64,000 bases of DNA from Candidatus Babeliales bacterium. Lineage in GTDB: Bacteria > Babelota > Babeliae > Babelales > JANWKD01. The notes beneath the pieces were generated by a model, which saw only the letters and a list, made by a program, of their open reading frames with translations, was not told the origin of the DNA and did no database searches. The stretch spans positions 1,248,001 to 1,312,000 of the forward strand of contig CAVRJM010000001.1 of assembly GCA_963722075.1 (NCBI GenBank), given 5' to 3'. This document shows, piece by piece, positions 3,579-24,316 of this stretch (the stretch's first letter is position 1; every line of letters starts with the position of its first letter). Made by a program: the position numbers and the translations under genes.

Positions 3579-4133
3579 ATGAAATTAATTAAGTATATTT
3601 TTTTTACATATATATTATTACTTAGCTTTTTTATTAAGGCATCAGAAGTCAATATTAATGGTTTAAAATCTAAAAATGCTAAAATTACCGAGAAAGTTGA
3701 ATTAATTTCACGTAAAAATGTGACCGAAATATTGAAACTTGGATTTCCGAGATTTTATGAATTATTAGGCAAAACGGGATATCTTCCAGCTTTAGAAGGT
3801 GCTAACGCTGTTACGATATTTGCCCCAACCGATGATGCGGTGAAAAAATTAAATGACATTTTTGGTGGAAAAGAGGCATTTAATAGGATTTTTGGTACTT
3901 CCGAAGGTATAGAAAAATTAAAAAAGATAGTGCGATTACATATTGCTCCTGATACTACGATGGCAGCAGATATTATGGAAATGAGTTCCATTCAGCCTTT
4001 TGGGGGTGGGAAATTGAATTTAAAAACCAAAAATGGTGTTATAACCATTAACGATAGCTCCGCAGTAATTCAAGCAGACATTTTAGGTAGTAATGGCGTA
4101 GTTCATGCAATTGATGCGGTAATTATGCCTTAA
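3579..4133 (+). CDS. Fasciclin (FAS1) domain protein
   Basis: TIFAPTDDA and NGVVHAIDAVI motifs; signal peptide. Confidence 0.9.
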   Translation: MKLIKYIFFTYILLLSFFIKASEVNINGLKSKNAKITEKVELISRKNVTEILKLGFPRFYELLGKTGYLPALEGANAVTIFAPTDDAVKKLNDIFGGKEAFNRIFGTSEGIEKLKKIVRLHIAPDTTMAADIMEMSSIQPFGGGKLNLKTKNGVITINDSSAVIQADILGSNGVVHAIDAVIMP

Positions 4134-4873
4134 AACCCAAAAAGACGAATAGTGCTTATAAAATCATTATAATTTCCGGTGACGATCCATTGTACTTTTG
4201 AATCGGTAAGTGGATTGGCATGCAATTCAAATAATACGGTGCGTATGAGTAATTCAGGGGAGACTAGGGAAATAGTGGCATGGTAATTGCTTACTATCAA
4301 CTCTTTAATCAAAGCATAATGAGTACAACCAAGAAGTAACGTATCAATATTGGTATTAAGAAATATCTTAAAATAAGATCGTAGTAAAGAAACGATTTTC
4401 TGTTGATTTGTATACTGCTTTTCTATAGCGCTTGCCAATTGAGGACATGCTTTATCCAAGATTGTTAAATTGGCATTATATTGTAACAACTTTTTCTTAT
4501 GAAGTTGGGTAGCAATAGTTGCTTTTGTTCCTACAATACCAATGATGCCATTTTTAGTAGTAGTGAGCGCTTCTTGAATGATAAGTTCAACGATATCGAT
4601 AAAATAGATAGTTGGAAATTGTTCTTTTAAGTAATTTAATGCATTAGTTGATGCAGTATGGCAGGCAATAATGATAATGGTACATCCTTGTTGTACTAAA
4701 TGATTCACTGCAATATAGGTCAGATTTTGAATTTCTAGCGCACTTCGTTTACCGTAGGGCATATGAAGGGTATCAGCAAAATAAATGAATTCAAAGCCTG
4801 GTAACGATATGATTTCCTTTAAAATTGATAAACCACCAATGCCTGAATCAAAAATGCCAATTTTTTTTAACAT
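4130..4873 (-). CDS. murI: Glutamate racemase
   Basis: IGIFDSGIGGLS, PYG, IACHTAS, LGCTHY. Confidence 0.95.
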   Translation of the reverse strand: MLKKIGIFDSGIGGLSILKEIISLPGFEFIYFADTLHMPYGKRSALEIQNLTYIAVNHLVQQGCTIIIIACHTASTNALNYLKEQFPTIYFIDIVELIIQEALTTTKNGIIGIVGTKATIATQLHKKKLLQYNANLTILDKACPQLASAIEKQYTNQQKIVSLLRSYFKIFLNTNIDTLLLGCTHYALIKELIVSNYHATISLVSPELLIRTVLFELHANPLTDSKVQWIVTGNYNDFISTIRLFGF

Positions 4874-4977
4874 GACAACTTATTAAGTTTAATTCTTCTT
4901 TGACTCTTTATTTTTTATAAATGGATCCAGCCTTCGTTAATCCAGCCGCCGCTAACGTATAGGATATTATTAATTAA

Positions 4978-5005
4978 TGGATCCCCACGCAAGCTCGGGA
5001 TGACG
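4978..5005 (-). repeat. CGTC-type REP-like hairpin
   Basis: Reverse complement CGTC-ATCCC-GAGCTTGCGTG-GGGAT-CCA. Confidence 0.8.
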
Positions 5006-5079
5006 ATTGCCGGAATATTGACCATACCAAATGATAATGTCTAAAAACAAAGAAAGTCATTTTAAATGCATTTGCCTGG

Positions 5080-5604
5080 TTAATAAGAAAAGTCTGGGTA
5101 AAACACTTTTATTTCTTTTTTAGCATTTTCAATCGAATCAGAACCATGTATCGCATTGTGGGTGATATCAGTGCCAAAAAGTTTTCTAATGGTCCCTTCT
5201 TCTGCCTTAGCCGGATCAGTAGCTCCCATGAGCGTACGCCAATCTTTAATGGCATTTTCTTTTTGCAATACCATAATAACGCTTGGTCCTGAGGTAATGT
5301 AATTAATTAACTCCTTAAAGAAAGGGCGTTCTTTATGGATTGCGTAAAATTCTTCTGCTTGTTTTTTTGAAATTACCACTTTTTCTATTTTTAATAGTAC
5401 AAAATCATGATGTTCAATACTATCAATAATTTTGCCGGTATTTTTTGCCGTTACGGCATCGGGTTTAATAATAGCAAATGTTTTTTCAAAGGGTTCACAA
5501 CTTGTTTTAACGTCTAATAATTTTTTAAAATTACTCACATTTAACAGAATAAACAGCGCTAATCCAGCAATAAAAACTGAAATTACCATCATTGTTTTAT
5601 TCAT
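5080..5604 (-). CDS. ndk: Nucleoside diphosphate kinase with N-terminal signal/anchor
   Basis: TFAIIKPDAV, F-Y-x-x-H-x-x-R-P-F-F, GTIR, NAIHGSDS; extra hydrophobic N-terminus. Confidence 0.92.
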   Translation of the reverse strand: MNKTMMVISVFIAGLALFILLNVSNFKKLLDVKTSCEPFEKTFAIIKPDAVTAKNTGKIIDSIEHHDFVLLKIEKVVISKKQAEEFYAIHKERPFFKELINYITSGPSVIMVLQKENAIKDWRTLMGATDPAKAEEGTIRKLFGTDITHNAIHGSDSIENAKKEIKVFYPDFSY

Positions 5605-18055: not shown

Positions 18056-19489
18056 ATGAATTTATTTATATTGGCATTTTATTTTGCGGTTTCTTTTGGC
18101 GGTGTTATTAATGCAATGGAAGACGCAAGCGATGTAAATAATGACCCACATTTTTTAGCACTGAAATCAATGCCACCTTTAGTTGATGGAATAATAAAGG
18201 CTAATGAATGTCCTTTTGTAACTGAGCGATCCATACAGCCTTTAACGAGATTATGTATTCCCGCGCTGAATGCGTATGTTCGAGCTCAAATTCAGCATAA
18301 CCCTCAATTTAATGTAACGCAATTTGAAAATTTGCTTTTATTAATTGGTGAGCATAGTTCTTATTTACAACAATCTCTTGCGCAAGAAATTGATACGGTG
18401 CCGCTTGAAATACAATATGAAGAAGACAAAAACGAAAAGGAAAACTATATATATGAAATAAAACTTGCGGGTTCAAATATGATTATCAGTCAAAAGGAGA
18501 AAGCTTTATTTACAAGAGAAAATAAATTAAAAAAAATTGCGAGCAAAAAACGGTCTCATATAACATCTATTAATGATAATACATTTGTTGATGGGAGAAA
18601 ATATTTTTCTATTTCAAATAATGGCAGGGTAGCATATCTCGATAAGACTTCTTTATATTTACAACTACCGTCGGATATAAATGATTGGTTACCAATAAGC
18701 TTTTTAAATGAATTATCACTATCTGAATCTTCTTCACCGGGATCTACTAAAGGACGTAATAGCTGTGCATGTGTTACATTTAGCCCCAATCAAGATTATT
18801 GCTTTGTAGGTACTACCGGTGGGGAAATTTTTAGGATTAATTTTCCTGCAGTGCTAGAATTAACCAAGAAAATATCTAAACATAGCATTAAGGCACTTTA
18901 TTGCGCAACTAATGGCTGTGTGTATGTTTCAGATGATAATGAGAAAAACTTCGTCTGGTATAATGAGGATATATTTGAATTACCATTTAAACAGCATACT
19001 AAAGAGATAATAAGTTCTGCAGATAATAATCTTGTTGCATTTCAACATCAAAACAATGAAGAAGTTTCAATAGTTGATTGGCATGCTCGTTCTATCGTTA
19101 CTCTCAAATTAGGTAAAATAGTAGCCATTACCCCCGATCATACAATTATAGCATCACGTGGTGAAGAGTTATTATTCTATAATATTCATGGCGAACTATT
19201 AAACAAAATCCAATTGTCTGCGGGGAGCACCGTATTTGGCAATACCGTTCCTTCATTTGATCCTCAAACCCCCTTATATGTGGTTGCAACAAAAGAAGAG
19301 CAAATTATCGTAGTTGATGATTATGAAACTTATGATGATACATGGATTCCAAGCATGAGTAGAGCTCCTAATTGCAAAAAAGTTGGTTCGCATACAGAAA
19401 AAAAATTAAAAAATTGCTTATGGTTTCCAAAGCAACTTTCAACTCAAGAATTATTTGATGAACTTAGTAAATTGCGTAAAAAAGAGTGA
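18056..19489 (+). CDS. Secreted WD40/beta-propeller-like protein
   Basis: Signal INA|MED; CVTFSPNQDYCFVGTTGGEI and other propeller-like strands. Confidence 0.6.
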   Translation: MNLFILAFYFAVSFGGVINAMEDASDVNNDPHFLALKSMPPLVDGIIKANECPFVTERSIQPLTRLCIPALNAYVRAQIQHNPQFNVTQFENLLLLIGEHSSYLQQSLAQEIDTVPLEIQYEEDKNEKENYIYEIKLAGSNMIISQKEKALFTRENKLKKIASKKRSHITSINDNTFVDGRKYFSISNNGRVAYLDKTSLYLQLPSDINDWLPISFLNELSLSESSSPGSTKGRNSCACVTFSPNQDYCFVGTTGGEIFRINFPAVLELTKKISKHSIKALYCATNGCVYVSDDNEKNFVWYNEDIFELPFKQHTKEIISSADNNLVAFQHQNNEEVSIVDWHARSIVTLKLGKIVAITPDHTIIASRGEELLFYNIHGELLNKIQLSAGSTVFGNTVPSFDPQTPLYVVATKEEQIIVVDDYETYDDTWIPSMSRAPNCKKVGSHTEKKLKNCLWFPKQLSTQELFDELSKLRKKE

Positions 19490-19535: not shown

Positions 19536-19940
19536 ATGAAATCATTTATAGCATTATTTTATTTTTCTGTATTATTTTTTTCTGGAGTGATAAATGCAAT
19601 GGAAGCTAGTGAAGCGAAAAAAGTTGCTGAAGCAGCAGAAATAAAGGTAACAAAGGAGGCGTCTCTTATTGCCATAGTTGCAGCACAAGAAAAACAAAAA
19701 CATGATGCTTGTTATGATAAATGCCCCGGTATGAAGAAAATAGATACCAGTAAAAAAAAGAATAACGATGATGATTTTGATTATACTAAGTGGTGTCCTG
19801 GTATGAGACCACCTACAAGAAATGCAACTGAATCAGCTAACAATAAATCAAACGATAATGATTTTGGTGAACGATGGTGGCCTTCATATGAATCTACTCA
19901 TACAAAAAATGATAGTAAGCATTATGATTGGGTTCCGTAA
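19536..19940 (+). CDS. Secreted protein with four aromatic/Pro repeats
   Basis: Signal INA|MEA; repeats YDKCPGM, TKWCPGM, ERWWPSY, YDWVP. Confidence 0.65.
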   Translation: MKSFIALFYFSVLFFSGVINAMEASEAKKVAEAAEIKVTKEASLIAIVAAQEKQKHDACYDKCPGMKKIDTSKKKNNDDDFDYTKWCPGMRPPTRNATESANNKSNDNDFGERWWPSYESTHTKNDSKHYDWVP

Positions 19941-19967: not shown

Positions 19968-20171
19968 TTACACATTTGCTTTGCAATTCTTGCAATCCCT
20001 GCAGCCTCTACAATCTTTGCAATTACTATTAATAGCCAAATTTTTTGAATTAATATTTTTGCGTATTTCTGAAATTTTTTTATCAGAGCGTGCTAATCGT
20101 TCGGTTACCGTAGCATTTATACGAATGGTAACAATTATAGACAATAAAAATATTACTATTTTATCTTTCAT
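19968..20171 (-). CDS. Secreted Cys-rich peptide A (precursor-like)
   Basis: MKDKIVIFLLSIIVTIRINA, conserved leader VTERLARSDKKISEIRKNINSKNLA, then NCKDCRGCRDCKNCKANV; alternative start at 20210. Confidence 0.75.
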   Translation of the reverse strand: MKDKIVIFLLSIIVTIRINATVTERLARSDKKISEIRKNINSKNLAINSNCKDCRGCRDCKNCKANV

Positions 20172-20211
20172 TTTTTTCTTCTTCGCAAAGTAGTTTTGTT
20201 TGTTATTCATT

Positions 20212-20706
20212 TTAACACATATCTAAAAGCCAAATAGAATTAATTTCTTCTTGAAAAGTTTCCTCATAGTTTTTGATAAATGCTTGAAAATCATTACGAA
20301 TTTCTTCTAGTTTTTCCGGTGTTGTATTCTTATTTGTTTCAGGAATATGATGTATAAAATGGTTGCAAAATTTGCTACAAAAATCTGCATAATCCTTGGT
20401 AAATAAAATGAAAGAGTGCCATAAATTATCAACATCTTTACTATACATGCCAACACCTGATCCATTGTTAGTAATAAGTGCTGAAAGTATTAGATATTTT
20501 TTTAATTCCTTTTCAAGAATAATCATATCTTCATTTGTATAATTATGATCTTTCTGACATCTTTTAATGATATCATCCATGGGGTAATCTAATATACCTT
20601 TGATAATCTGCTTTTTATTAACTTCTTTCGTTGAATAGCTATATAAACAAACAACAGTTACTAATCCTATCGTAGCAAACAATAATATTTTATTGATTAT
20701 TTTCAT
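20212..20706 (-). CDS. GRDP-like (glycine-rich-domain/DUF1399-like) protein with N-terminal signal/anchor
   Basis: ELKKYL...SKDVDNLWHSFILFTKDYADFCSKFCNHFIHHIP...YEETF...IW. Confidence 0.75.
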   Translation of the reverse strand: MKIINKILLFATIGLVTVVCLYSYSTKEVNKKQIIKGILDYPMDDIIKRCQKDHNYTNEDMIILEKELKKYLILSALITNNGSGVGMYSKDVDNLWHSFILFTKDYADFCSKFCNHFIHHIPETNKNTTPEKLEEIRNDFQAFIKNYEETFQEEINSIWLLDMC

Positions 20707-20762
20707 GATTAAATTCTTATGCAAATGATGGTACAGTATGGTTTTGATTATGAATTATTAGA

Positions 20763-20814
20763 ATATAAAGATGATTGAGTTATTAGCAATTAAATAACTC
20801 AATTATCTTTATAT
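20763..20814. promoter_or_regulatory. Long stem-loop just downstream of the peptide B gene
   Basis: 22-bp arms ATATAAAGATGATTGAGTTATT and AATAACTCAATTATCTTTATAT, one mismatch. Confidence 0.6.
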
Positions 20815-20821
20815 AAACATG

Positions 20822-21019
20822 TTATATAGATTTTTTACAGCCAGAGCAGCTTTTACAACTTTGTCTACAATCAGAAGCTGCTGCTAAATTTTTTGAATTA
20901 ATATTTTTGCGTATTTCTGAAATTTTTTTATCAGAATGTGCTAATCGTTCAGTTACTGAAGCGCGAATTTGCGCAGTGAAGATTAAAGTAATTGCTGTTA
21001 ATAGTAATGTATTGTTCAT
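20822..21019 (-). CDS. Secreted Cys-rich peptide B (precursor-like)
   Basis: RBS AAGGA; signal peptide, VTERLAHSDKKISEIRKNINSKNLA, then DCRQSCKSCSGCKKSI. Confidence 0.8.
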   Translation of the reverse strand: MNNTLLLTAITLIFTAQIRASVTERLAHSDKKISEIRKNINSKNLAAASDCRQSCKSCSGCKKSI

Positions 21020-21279
21020 TAACGTCCTTTGTGTTTATGTTTATTTAACCATACGTTTAATAACATTTTTTATTTGAGTGTGCAAGCAAAGATGAGGTTT
21101 TTATTGTACAATAAACAAAAAATTATAAGGAGTGGTAAGCTATTTGGTGGAAGTTGTTTTACTATTATTTTTTTTGGTATTTTTACAATTTTAACAATTG
21201 CCGTCTGTTACCATTAAATTTTTTGAAACTGATTTTGCTAGTAGCATTTCAGTTGTTGAAATGAAGGGTTTAACAATTT

Positions 21280-21594
21280 TTATTCGTGCCAGCTACATAA
21301 TTCATATATAAGCTTCTCATGCTCCTCGCTCTTTTGTATCTGAAGGCTTAGTGCATTGAGTTTGTTATTATATTCATTCTGTGCCTGATGCATATCCATC
21401 CCATGTTTTATATTTTCTGCTATTAATGCTTGTTCATTATCCAAAAAATATTGATGGTATTTTTTTAAGTCTGCACTTGCTGTTTGATTAGTTGTTTGGT
21501 TATTATCTACCCAATTAAACAAGCTTTCTTCCATTGAAAAAATAAAGTTACTATACGTTAGTACGGATAAATAAAAAATTCTTACTGTTTTCAT
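21280..21594 (-). CDS. Small secreted helical protein
   Basis: Signal IFS|MEE. Confidence 0.6.
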   Translation of the reverse strand: MKTVRIFYLSVLTYSNFIFSMEESLFNWVDNNQTTNQTASADLKKYHQYFLDNEQALIAENIKHGMDMHQAQNEYNNKLNALSLQIQKSEEHEKLIYELCSWHE

Positions 21595-21641
21595 ATTAAT
21601 AAATCGACTAATTTTGAGTAAAAAACTGGTGATTAAAACTT

Positions 21642-21797
21642 TTATTTTTTTGTAGTTCTACAATCTTTGCAGTTATTCTTACCATGTTTACAGTGACCTG
21701 CTAGAACATTTTTTGTTGGATCGGTTTGTTTTTGGGTAGTTAGGGAATGGGCTGATATCATGATGCATACTAGCGCTAGGAATAATGTCTTTTTCAT
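21642..21797 (-). CDS. Secreted Cys/His peptide C (51 aa, below the ORF-track cutoff)
   Basis: Hand translation MKKTLFLALVCIMISAHSLTTQKQTDPTKNVLAGHCKHGKNNCKDCRTTKK*; shares KN(V)LA and NCKDCR with peptide A. Confidence 0.65.
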   Translation of the reverse strand: MKKTLFLALVCIMISAHSLTTQKQTDPTKNVLAGHCKHGKNNCKDCRTTKK

Positions 21798-21869: not shown

Positions 21870-24316
21870 CTACTTGATTGCAATTTTTGCTTTATATACT
21901 TCCTGATCTTTAACTAATAGTGATTCAGAAAGATCTGAAATCTGATAATGTATCATTTCTGCTTGCGTTACCCCTTTAATAAGTTGTTCTAAGGGAGCTA
22001 AAGCATCCAATTTTTTTTGTTCAGCGCTGTAAATTTCGAGTGCTTTTAAAGGTGTTTTTAATGATAGTTGCTGTGCAGTTTTTAATGTACGAACTTCACT
22101 AATTACTTGTAACGCAATGGTCATTGTTAGTGCGCTTGCTTCAAAGGTATATGCTCGTTGATCAAATTCAGTATTATGAATAGATGGATTTTTTATGGTT
22201 GATTTATATAGTTCTTGATAAATCGCTTCGGTAATATATGGTATGTACGGTGCAAATGGTTGCAATATATTCAATCCTACCGTATAAAGCGTCCATCGGG
22301 TACCAGCAATTTCTTGTGGTGAATACAATTCTGGTTTGAATAACTGTTCCTTAATTATTTCAATATAATTATCACAAAAATCGTTCCAAAAAAACTGCTC
22401 AATAGCATCAAGCGCTAAGCTAAATTCATACTCATCAAAATAATGTCTGTAATTTTTAAAACAAAGCGTCTTTTGATGTAACAGCCATTCATTAGCTGCA
22501 CCTAAATATGCCGGTTGCTCAGTAGGAATATCGCGCATATGTTCATGAATAAAACGAAATGCATTCCATAATTTTGTAATAAGGCGTTGACCAATTTTGA
22601 GTTGATTTTCTGAAAATGCAACATCGCTGCCCAATCGTCCAGATGCTGTCCAATAACGGATAACATCTGCTGGATATTGTTCTAGCAATTGTTCAGGAGC
22701 TAAGCGAGCATTTTCTTTTGATTTTGATAACTTTTCTTTTGCGTCACTTAATACGTGACCAGAAATAACAATCGTACGCCAAGGAATTTGTTCATAATGC
22801 ATCCAAGATTTTACGACGGTGTAAAATGCCCAGGTGCGAATAATATCATGCGCTTGGGGCCGCATACTCATGGGTATAAATTCTTTAGCCGCGTCTCCAA
22901 ACGGGCTTTCTTGCGGATTATATAATGAAAAACAAAGTTGTGGTGTTAATGAAGAAGTGTTCCAGGTGTCCATTACATCAGTATCTGGTTCAATAATACT
23001 GCTTTGGCAGGTAGGGCAATTTGCAGTATATGCTGTTTCTTGCGGATCAATAGGCAGCTGTTTTTCATCTGCTAAAATGACATGCCCATTATTACAATGC
23101 CAAGCTGGAAATGGGATACCATAAAAGCGTTGACGCGATAAGCACCAATCCCAACTTAATGATTCAACCCAATTAACATAACGTGACCTCATAAAATGTG
23201 GGAACCATTCTATTTGATCAGCAAGCTCAATAAAATTCTTTTTATAAGGAAGAAGCTCTAAAAACCATTGTGTTAATGCTAAATATTCAATCTCTTTTTT
23301 GCAGCGTTCGTGTACATTTACGGTATGCATAATTGGTTTTTGATTGAGCAATTTACCGTGCTCTTTAAGCTCAGCTAATACCTTTTCTCGTGCTTGGTGT
23401 ACTTTTAACCCAGCTAAAATACCGGTATCTTCATTCCACCGGCCATCTTTACCAATTGATGGTTTATACGGTAAGTTATACTTTTTAATCCACTGAATAT
23501 CTGTTTTATCGCCAAAGGTACAACACATTACCAACCCAGTTCCTTTTTCAATAGACACTGCATCATCGGCTAAAATAGGAACCGTATAATTATAGAGCGG
23601 GACAATTGCTTTTTGCCCAGCCAGGTGCTGGTAACGGGGATCATGAGGATTATAAAAAAGCGCTACACAGGAAGGTAGCAATTCAGGTCGGGTAGTTCCC
23701 ACAATAAGCGGACTACCATCAGCAGCGCTGAATGCAATATCATTAAAAAAAGATGATTTCTCTACATCGTCCAATTCTGCTTGCGCGACTGTGGTGCGGC
23801 AGGTGGTACAATATAGAGCTGGTTCATGTTTACGATAAATAAAGCCTTTTTTATATAAGGCGATAAATGATTCTTGTGAGATTCTTCGCGATCTAGTATC
23901 AATGGTGGAATAGCTTAACTGCCAATCAACAGAAAGTCCCATCCGTTGCCACAAGCTTTTAAATTGTTCTTCAACTTCATGCGTTTCGAGTAAGCACAGT
24001 TGAATAAACTCTGAGCGCTTCATAGCATGGGCGCTTATTTCTTTTTTTTCTCTACAAATCGTTCAGTCGGTAGACCGTTATCATCAAAACCAAAGGGATA
24101 AAAAACAGAAAAACCGGTCATTCGTTTATAACGAGCTATAATATCGGTTTGTGTATAAGAAAAAATATGCCCTATATGTAAAGATCCTGACACCGTTGGT
24201 GGTGGGGTATCAATGCTGTAGGGAGGCTTATCAGCGGATGCTTTGTAAATATGCTCCTTATCCCAAAGCTCATTTATTTTTATTTCATATTTTTTATTAT
24301 CGTACTGTTTTTCCAT
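21870..24316 (-). CDS. valS: Valine--tRNA ligase (type 2, archaeal-like), split by a frameshift at an A8 run
   Basis: DTPPPTVSGSLHIGH in 24035-24316; GTGLVMCCTFGD, WCLSRQR, DIIRTWAFY and KLSKS in 21870-24023; a -1 shift near 24045 joins them. Confidence 0.9.

Follow-up and report, generated by a model that had tools for sequence, protein, structure and literature searches.

We examined a locus of cysteine-rich, secreted-type peptides in the genome of a Candidatus Babeliales bacterium, within a window of 64,000 nucleotides (nt) that is the whole stretch of DNA analyzed (contig CAVRJM010000001.1 of assembly GCA_963722075.1, positions 1,248,001 to 1,312,000). Two peptide genes, A and B, flank the gene for a small helical protein of the UCP032817-like family (PF27765), referred to here as the domain protein (Table 1). 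Based on a comparison of gene architectures among relatives, we conclude that the locus represents a widespread module, a domain followed by a Cys-rich tail, in fully split and exported form. Peptides and domain very probably work as a physical pair. That the two are also substrate and enzyme, resembling a precursor of the ribosomally synthesized and posttranslationally modified peptides (RiPPs) and a metal-dependent partner, has in our judgment slightly less than an even chance of being right. The host genome is 1.47 Mb (1.466 Mb) in size and 99% complete, and the close protein relatives of the domain protein come from metagenome-assembled genomes of Candidatus Babeliales/Dependentiae.

The architecture comparison drew on domain genes from 61 genomes of the order (12 with a match), GTDB species genomes (12 loci), and metagenome contigs (36 loci). 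Three weak loci with in-frame stops (L013 to L015) were dropped and identical proteins were merged by their last 70 to 80 residues, leaving 50 domain genes. In six of them (L010 twice, L011, L012, L030, and L059), the domain and a Cys-rich tail form one protein. Thirty others are accompanied by one to three adjacent mini-genes on the same strand, whose products have a signal-peptide-like N terminus and a Cys-rich end. At 24 of these 30 loci, the window included, a conserved amphipathic helix forms the start of the product as it would be after the predicted cleavage. The other six (L056, L057, L058, L060, L064, and L065) are half-split: the domain gene stops just after its HHxP motif, and the mini-genes carry the domain's missing last helix (Y..F..YE..F.E.P..W) together with the Cys tail. 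Four loci were uncertain (L051, L052, L054, and L055), and 10 had neither tail nor peptide (L008, L017, L023, L036, L037, L040, L041, L049, L063, and L066, with less than 150 nt of upstream DNA to inspect at L041 and L049).

This manual reading of open reading frames (ORFs) is bracketed by two automatic counts. A strict rule (40 to 110 amino acids [aa], hydrophobic N terminus, at least three Cys in the last 25 residues, polar remainder) found a peptide at 18/50 loci besides the 6/50 fused cases, against a background of 11 such ORFs in the 1.466-Mb host genome, 3 of which lie at the peptide/domain locus itself. A relaxed rule found 33/50 plus the 6/50 fused, with some false calls and 0.09 expected per locus. 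The series of fused, half-split, and fully split forms indicates that domain and tail belong together. An original prediction, made from the DNA letters and a list of ORFs, had held that the fused tail of other proteins exists here as separate exported peptides, and the fused, half-split, and fully split relatives support this; the survey of homolog neighborhoods for Cys-rich ORFs that it proposed found linkage in 30/50 and a fused tail in 6/50.

The same pairing extends beyond the order. The full domain is present in 118 of the best 150 representatives of the domain family; three or more Cys follow it in 66/118, comprising 18/36 with a hydrophobic N terminus and 48/82 without one. About 14 exported-type proteins among the best 150 stop after HHxP. 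Strong matches to a profile of the peptides (E ≤ 1e-10) were confined to five genomes (G000, G002, G019, G020, and G052), all with an unfused domain gene, and none at this level occurred in 49 domain-negative genomes. Four of the five positive genomes had contributed to the profile, so the informative part of this result is the absence elsewhere. At L029 (the same locus as L010; contig 77 of G057, positions 225 to 2517), four domain paralogs stand in tandem; the two with intact WH and HHxP motifs keep Cys tails, and the two that lost these motifs have none. When a fused member was modeled with AlphaFold2 (AF2), the predicted local distance difference test (pLDDT) score was >94 for the domain and 51 to 62 for the tail, and the low confidence of the tail would fit a flexible, substrate-like segment.

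Two relatives with neither tail nor peptide have features of their own. In L008 (1459-2172, minus strand), the domain lacks the export helix and sits behind a different N-terminal region, with no Cys tail or peptide nearby. At L023, which has no detectable peptide gene, the domain gene is adjoined by an ORF (3733-4143, minus strand) whose product looks by eye like a VKOR-type membrane protein.

Peptide A consists of a signal-peptide-like N terminus, the conserved helix TVTERLARSDKKISEIRKNINSKNLA, and a core with five Cys in C-x2-C spacing. Peptide B, whose ATG is preceded at 8 nt by AAGGA, has a signal peptide unlike that of A, the same helix (SVTERLAHSDKKISEIRKNINSKNLA), and another Cys core (C-x3-C-x2-C-x2-C). 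Conservation between the two genes is concentrated in the middle: the helix is identical at 71/81 nt (24/27 aa), compared with 32/60 nt for the signal peptide and 20/48 nt (2/16 aa) for the Cys core. The helix segments differ by three synonymous and three nonsynonymous codons. These values agree with the earlier description of different signal peptides, a near-identical segment, and divergent cores, and a conserved leader or recognition segment (24/27 aa) joined to a variable core (2/16 aa) is the generic pattern of RiPP precursors. Peptide C, which ends in ...CKHGKNNCKDCRTTKK, is without the conserved helix and was not recovered in a search with peptide A as the query. Its previously noted likeness to the other peptides is visible as a 25-nt repeat, 88% identical, that it has in common with the core of A, and it is possibly a degenerate third copy that lacks the helix.

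The pattern of a conserved helix and a variable Cys core holds over 14 aligned peptides. In 13 aligned peptides, the N terminus is hydrophobic and a small residue (A/G/C/S) directly precedes the helix, whose consensus after the predicted cleavage site is amphipathic, [SA][VLI]x[EK][KR][LI]A...I...[KR]..[IV]. Peptide A matches the family profile, of which it is itself a member, with an E value of 9.9e-21. The 13 database matches of the family are all hypothetical proteins of Babeliales/Dependentiae without a Pfam family, and the peptides of the window match neither Pfam nor NCBIfam. Gaps of two and three residues dominate between cysteines, both in the peptides (22 and 12 of 40 gaps) and in fused tails (73 and 55 of 224). 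Cysteines are the sole conserved residues of the tails; the spacers vary and are rich in Lys, Asn, and Arg in the Babeliales peptides, whereas they are rich in Gly and Ser in the fused representatives. In a separate observation, the 99-aa peptide at L022 (2609-2908, plus strand) contains the helix and Cys module twice in tandem within one ORF.

A signal peptide followed by a conserved segment and a hypervariable Cys-rich end, in one to three diversified copies per locus, would also be expected if the peptides were disulfide-rich effectors or toxins, secreted and carrying a conserved pro-region. Conotoxins and defensins offer parallels for such a pro-region. Peptides of this kind would be directed against a protist host or competitors, with the domain protein serving as an immunity, processing, or export helper, and the identity of the organism as a Babeliales bacterium would suit that role. 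We consider it very improbable, given that the wider family is mostly cytoplasmic with the tail fused (82/118 full-domain representatives have no N-terminal hydrophobic stretch) and that the tails are short and of low complexity.

The domain protein has an N-terminal hydrophobic helix, which may be a signal peptide or a membrane anchor, followed by an all-helical UCP032817-like domain, and it ends ...WLLDMC without a Cys tail. Based on precomputed Pfam tags (PF27765.1) on the 100% identical 164-aa protein P0001 and on 73/73 homologs from a word-indexed search, and on the names of the nearest Atlas clusters (UCP032817-like, PF27765, Pfam 38.1), we assign it to PF27765; local copies of Pfam (without the PF27765 model) and NCBIfam returned nothing for it. 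An exhaustive profile search recovered 3405 representatives (50% identity clusters) at E ≤ 1e-3 and 295 at E ≤ 1e-10; a cluster look-up yielded no names for the distant members. With the domain profile, 10 of 201 genomes of the phylum of G061 had a match.

The original prediction had called the protein GRDP/DUF1399-like and had asked for a hidden Markov model search against Pfam and TIGRFAMs. The likeness stands at the superfamily level and fails as direct membership. PF07173 (gathering cutoff, 22.7 bits) has no match in the domain protein (E ≤ 10), in the whole genome (where the control gave no match either), or in any family member examined (0/30, the domain protein and 29 relatives); TIGR04222 (cutoff, 43 bits) is likewise unmatched in the domain protein, the genome, and 26 other family members (0/26). 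The family that the search yielded instead is PF27765. Intermediate members make the connection: L078, found with the domain profile (E 1e-18), reaches 28 bits against PF07173, L080 reaches 19 bits, and in one Atlas cluster PF27765 is found on 78% of members and PF07173 on 10%. The GRDP-like link is thus a transitive one. No publication was found under UCP032817 or PIRSF032817, and the available parts of the DUF1399 literature surveyed (plant and fungal studies and one actinobacteria-plant review) give no bacterial function of the domain.

The AF2 model of the domain protein is all-helical (pLDDT, 92.1; predicted template modeling score, 0.80), with the hydrophobic helix at residues 2 to 25 and six further helices. 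Searches for a solved relative were negative: Foldseek found no match in the PDB at E ≤ 0.001, the best VIA-align hit over 48,161 chains (Z, 4.7) was at noise level for helical proteins, and a family-profile search of PDB sequences stayed at chance level (best E, 0.042). The predicted motif VD..WH.FIL.T..Y..FC...FIHH.P is present in the protein. Its invariant residues are R49, E67, D93, W96, H97, T103, Y106, H119, H120, P122, and W159, and the core columns D-x2-W-H ... T-x2-Y ... H-H-x-P do not vary in 30 sequences. Among 150 diverse representatives, D93, W96, H97, Y106, and H120 are kept in 149, T103 and P122 in 146, H119 in 143, and E67 in 139. In the model, helix 90-101 carries D93 and H97 at a distance of one turn, and the loop that follows helix 103-113 carries H119 and H120. 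We infer that D93, H97, H119, and H120, with E67, form a metal site. Because the fold has no solved relative, catalysis is proposed from the conserved residues only.

Between peptide B and the domain gene lies a stem-loop, whose presence after B had been noted earlier. Its 22-nt arms (20763-20784 and 20793-20814) are 95% complementary, and the folding energy of its RNA is -20.7 kcal/mol (z = -6.5), a value that 0/200 shuffled sequences equaled. There is no Rfam match at the locus, and the hairpin, with its AU-rich stem and lack of a T-run, goes undetected in a scan for consensus terminators. Among eight other loci checked, an inverted repeat occupies the equivalent position in L019, L020, L027, and L043, and a weak one does so in L025. 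The hairpin is likely a partial terminator or an mRNA-stabilizing element.

We propose that A and B are detached, separately exported Cys-rich tails of the PF27765 domain protein. They would be exported by Sec and cleaved just before the helix, and this conserved N-terminal helix would then dock on the membrane-anchored or periplasmic domain; since the domain is fused to its tail in many bacteria, docking on the partner outside the cytoplasm is likely. A metal at the invariant Asp/His site of the domain would act on the cysteines of the tethered tail and modify it covalently, making a RiPP-like pair of precursor and maturase, and the hairpin would raise the ratio of peptide to partner. More tentatively, and with the odds against it, the UCP032817-like/GRDP-like domain in general may be a new class of small metal-dependent peptide maturases that modify a tethered Cys-rich tail. 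Such a maturase would be autocatalytic on the fused tail in thousands of bacterial lineages, perhaps including the Gly/Cys regions of plant GRDPs, and would act in trans in the split, exported form of Babeliales, which would then represent an undescribed RiPP-like class with extracytoplasmic maturation.

Neighboring genes of relatives were sampled at about 70 loci. A gene for an S-adenosylmethionine methyltransferase is directly downstream in L075, L076, and L081, from Patescibacteria-type genomes, and in L017, and P0074 is a fusion of the domain to TPMT (E 1e-59). Both the neighboring and the fused methyltransferases of these cytoplasmic relatives belong to TehB/TPMT-type families, which act on tellurite, selenium, and thiols. 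L075 also adjoins a TauD-family dioxygenase gene, and a Peptidase_S9 gene adjoins L078, L084, and L030; the remaining loci of the Patescibacteria set have housekeeping or GNAT neighbors. Three Rhizobiales plasmids give further examples. On an Agrobacterium plasmid, two tandem tail-bearing genes are followed by genes for a GT4 glycosyltransferase and an ATP-binding cassette (ABC) exporter. On a Brucella pituitosa plasmid, the domain gene is followed by ABC exporter, glycosyltransferase, and AsnB genes, and on a Rhizobium gallicum plasmid it is followed by a glycosyltransferase gene. In the Babeliales loci examined, no further gene is conserved beside the domain/peptide pair. The host genome encodes a VKOR homolog, no DsbA-like Thioredoxin_4 protein was found in it, and the neighbors at the locus fit no characterized RiPP-enzyme family in Pfam and NCBIfam scans. 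As separate observations, metagenomic fusions of the domain to FAD-oxidase_C and to GNAT were seen; they are possible gene-calling mergers.

The main rival to covalent modification is a metal-handling pair, in which the exported tails would be unmodified, metallothionein-like thiolate ligands for copper, zinc, or a metalloid. The metal would be bound jointly with, or passed on by, the His/Asp site of the domain, providing periplasmic buffering for an amoeba-dwelling bacterium. We regard this explanation as possible, though somewhat unlikely. The predominance of two- and three-residue Cys gaps noted above, the conservation of Cys alone in the tails with varying spacers, the invariant His, Asp, and Glu residues of the domain, and the TehB/TPMT-type methyltransferases beside or fused to cytoplasmic relatives are all consistent with it, and the spacing, the His site, and the TehB/TPMT link suit it as well as they suit modification. 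So is the protection against copper by bufferins, which are exported Cys peptides, as described in the available part of PMC12452194. A plain chelator, however, needs no conserved docking helix, dedicated partner, or hypervariable paralog cores, and the S9, glycosyltransferase, ABC exporter, and TauD neighbors are better suited to processing and export. In addition, vicinal thiols may be oxidized once exported, because the genome encodes a VKOR homolog.

The variety of tailoring-type neighbors among lineages, while domain and tail stay constant, could also mean that the domain is a noncatalytic scaffold or long leader, whose role would be to offer the Cys tail to other enzymes or the disulfide machinery. 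NHLP and Nif11 leader domains are parallels for recognition or chaperone-type roles of this sort. In Babeliales, the domain would retain the exported peptides so that they can be folded or delivered, which would agree with the predicted flexibility of the tail in AF2 and with the presence of VKOR. We think a scaffold decidedly unlikely: the near-invariance of D93, H97, Y106, H119, and H120 in the 150 representatives exceeds the usual needs of docking, and the Babeliales pair has no other conserved adjoining gene.

For docked and possibly modified tails, we count the architecture series, the co-occurrence of peptide and domain, and the conservation of the site in 150 representatives. Several further features are precursor-like, namely, the conserved helix with a hypervariable core, the one to three peptide genes per domain gene, the hairpin here and at four to five of eight other loci, and the restriction of L029 tails to paralogs with an intact His motif. 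We also count the methyltransferase, S9, TauD, glycosyltransferase, and ABC exporter genes beside cytoplasmic relatives.

A number of observations weigh on the other side. None of the family members is known to have an enzyme activity, a metal, or a mass shift, and the fold is without a solved relative. The window contains no known RiPP enzyme, and MNIO (MbnB/TglH/ChrH, PF05114) had 0 matches at E ≤ 1 in the 99%-complete genome. Bacterial RiPPs would not normally be modified after export by Sec. Ten of the 50 relatives have neither tail nor peptide, and the tail-less P0074 and L075 keep the His motif, so that a Cys tail is not a requirement for the domain to act. The neighboring enzymes of distant relatives vary by lineage and are absent in Babeliales; even in the Patescibacteria loci, a methyltransferase is found in 3/10 and an S9 peptidase in 2/10. 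The C-x2-C and C-x3-C spacing with differing spacers fits plain metal binding equally well. Finally, the idea that the helix of the fully split peptides is a duplicate of the last domain helix is unsupported, with hhalign aligning only nine columns of the Cys segment (probability, 21%).

Fused PF27765 proteins have the same domain, the same D..WH...T..Y...HH.P site, and a Cys-rich segment with C-x2/3-C spacing. They differ from the locus described here, where the tail comes from a separate gene and bears a signal peptide of its own as well as an additional conserved helix; the family is mostly cytoplasmic and fused, and the domain protein of the window has an N-terminal export or anchor helix. 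The GRDP-like/DUF1399 proteins (PF07173; plant AtGRDP1/2) have a motif region in common with PF27765 relatives. In plant GRDPs, as described in PMC4299439, the domain is followed by a region rich in Gly and Cys (consensus, [CG]GGGCGG[GC]). They are about 790 aa long and contain a further motif, and only growth and stress phenotypes, with no biochemistry, are reported for them. The Gly(/Cys)-rich region that marks GRDPs lies in the same protein, whereas the tail here is on separate peptides.

The earlier statement that TIGR04222-type proteins bear Cys/Gly/Ser tails is supported by the available part of PMC12452194, in which TIGR04222 membrane proteins have C-terminal Ser/Gly/Cys tails that are predicted to face the periplasm and are possible MNIO substrates. 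It is also supported by a TIGR04222 protein from a Ralstonia plasmid that has both parts, with an N-terminal UCP032817-like domain (profile E 1e-11), a membrane part, and a Ser/Gly/Cys tail. TIGR04222 proteins have several transmembrane segments and a tail; the domain protein has one hydrophobic helix in the AF2 model and no tail. We observed that the Ralstonia protein (L085; R. wenshanensis plasmid, 3809-5377), which combines the domain, the TIGR04222 part, and the tail in one chain, is encoded within a type VI secretion cluster, between tagF/OmpA-family genes and tssA.

Bufferins, as described in PMC12452194, are Cys-containing precursors with Sec-type signal peptides and a periplasmic location, and the peptides here would resemble them, with putative Sec-type signal peptides and a proposed action in the periplasm. 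Unlike the bufferin systems, the locus has an unrelated precursor family and a partner that is itself exported, and the bufferin-type MNIO enzyme is without a match in the genome. Metallothioneins have dense C-x-C/C-x2-C arrays, and the Cys spacing of the peptides appears to fit these. In borosins, the enzyme is fused to its own core peptide, and split variants exist. BURP-domain cyclases are copper dependent and occur in autocatalytic and split forms. By analogy, both resemble the module described here in that one domain and its peptide occur in fused and split forms, and the parallel may extend to the prolyl-oligopeptidase-family gene beside some fused relatives here. The resemblance is one of logic only, with no relation in sequence or fold.

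The features of the locus are collected in Table 1. In the order of minus-strand transcription, they are peptide C, a 104-aa ORF, peptide B, the inverted repeat, the domain gene, and peptide A, and the five co-oriented ORFs lie where the original prediction had placed them. The 104-aa ORF was considered as a part of the module and dropped, as it has no counterpart beside the domain gene in the related loci examined; it probably does not belong to the peptide/domain module.

Table 1. Coordinates of the features at the peptide/domain locus (positions in the window).
Feature	Positions	Strand	Description
Peptide A	19968-20171	-	67 aa, or 80 aa from the alternative ATG at 20210
80-nt direct repeat, copy 1	20035-20114		Encodes helix common to A and B
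Domain protein	20212-20706	-	164 aa from ATG; TTG at 20724 gives 170 aa
Hairpin between peptide B and domain gene	20763-20814	-	22-nt arms, 8-nt loop
Peptide B	20822-21019	-	65 aa
80-nt direct repeat, copy 2	20883-20962		93% identical to copy 1
104-aa secreted-type ORF	21280-21594	-	Between B and C; borderline DUF2192 match only
Peptide C	21642-21797	-	51 aa; signal-peptide-like N terminus

On the far side of peptide C, a valyl/class-I tRNA synthetase gene (21870-24316, minus strand) is split into a 93-aa N-terminal ORF (24035-24316) and a 717-aa ORF (21870-24023). The split falls at a run of eight A; either the frameshift is genuine or the homopolymer was misassembled. On the other side, two plus-strand ORFs of the secreted type (18056-19489 and 19536-19940) adjoin the locus, and both of their signal peptides end ...GVINAME. 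The first (477 aa) has weak beta-propeller matches only; in the second (134 aa), a C-P-G-M motif recurs and a 29-nt repeat lies within the ORF.

With 3405 representative clusters, the domain family is large; it reaches plants through GRDP-like and is without a solved structure or known biochemistry. Because the Babeliales locus splits domain and Cys tail into two small genes, a proposed action of the one on the other becomes a matter for a simple two-component experiment. If the domain is an enzyme, the locus would reveal new peptide-modification chemistry; if the two are a metal-handling pair, it would add a periplasmic metal defense to amoeba-dwelling bacteria. Either answer would annotate thousands of hypothetical proteins.

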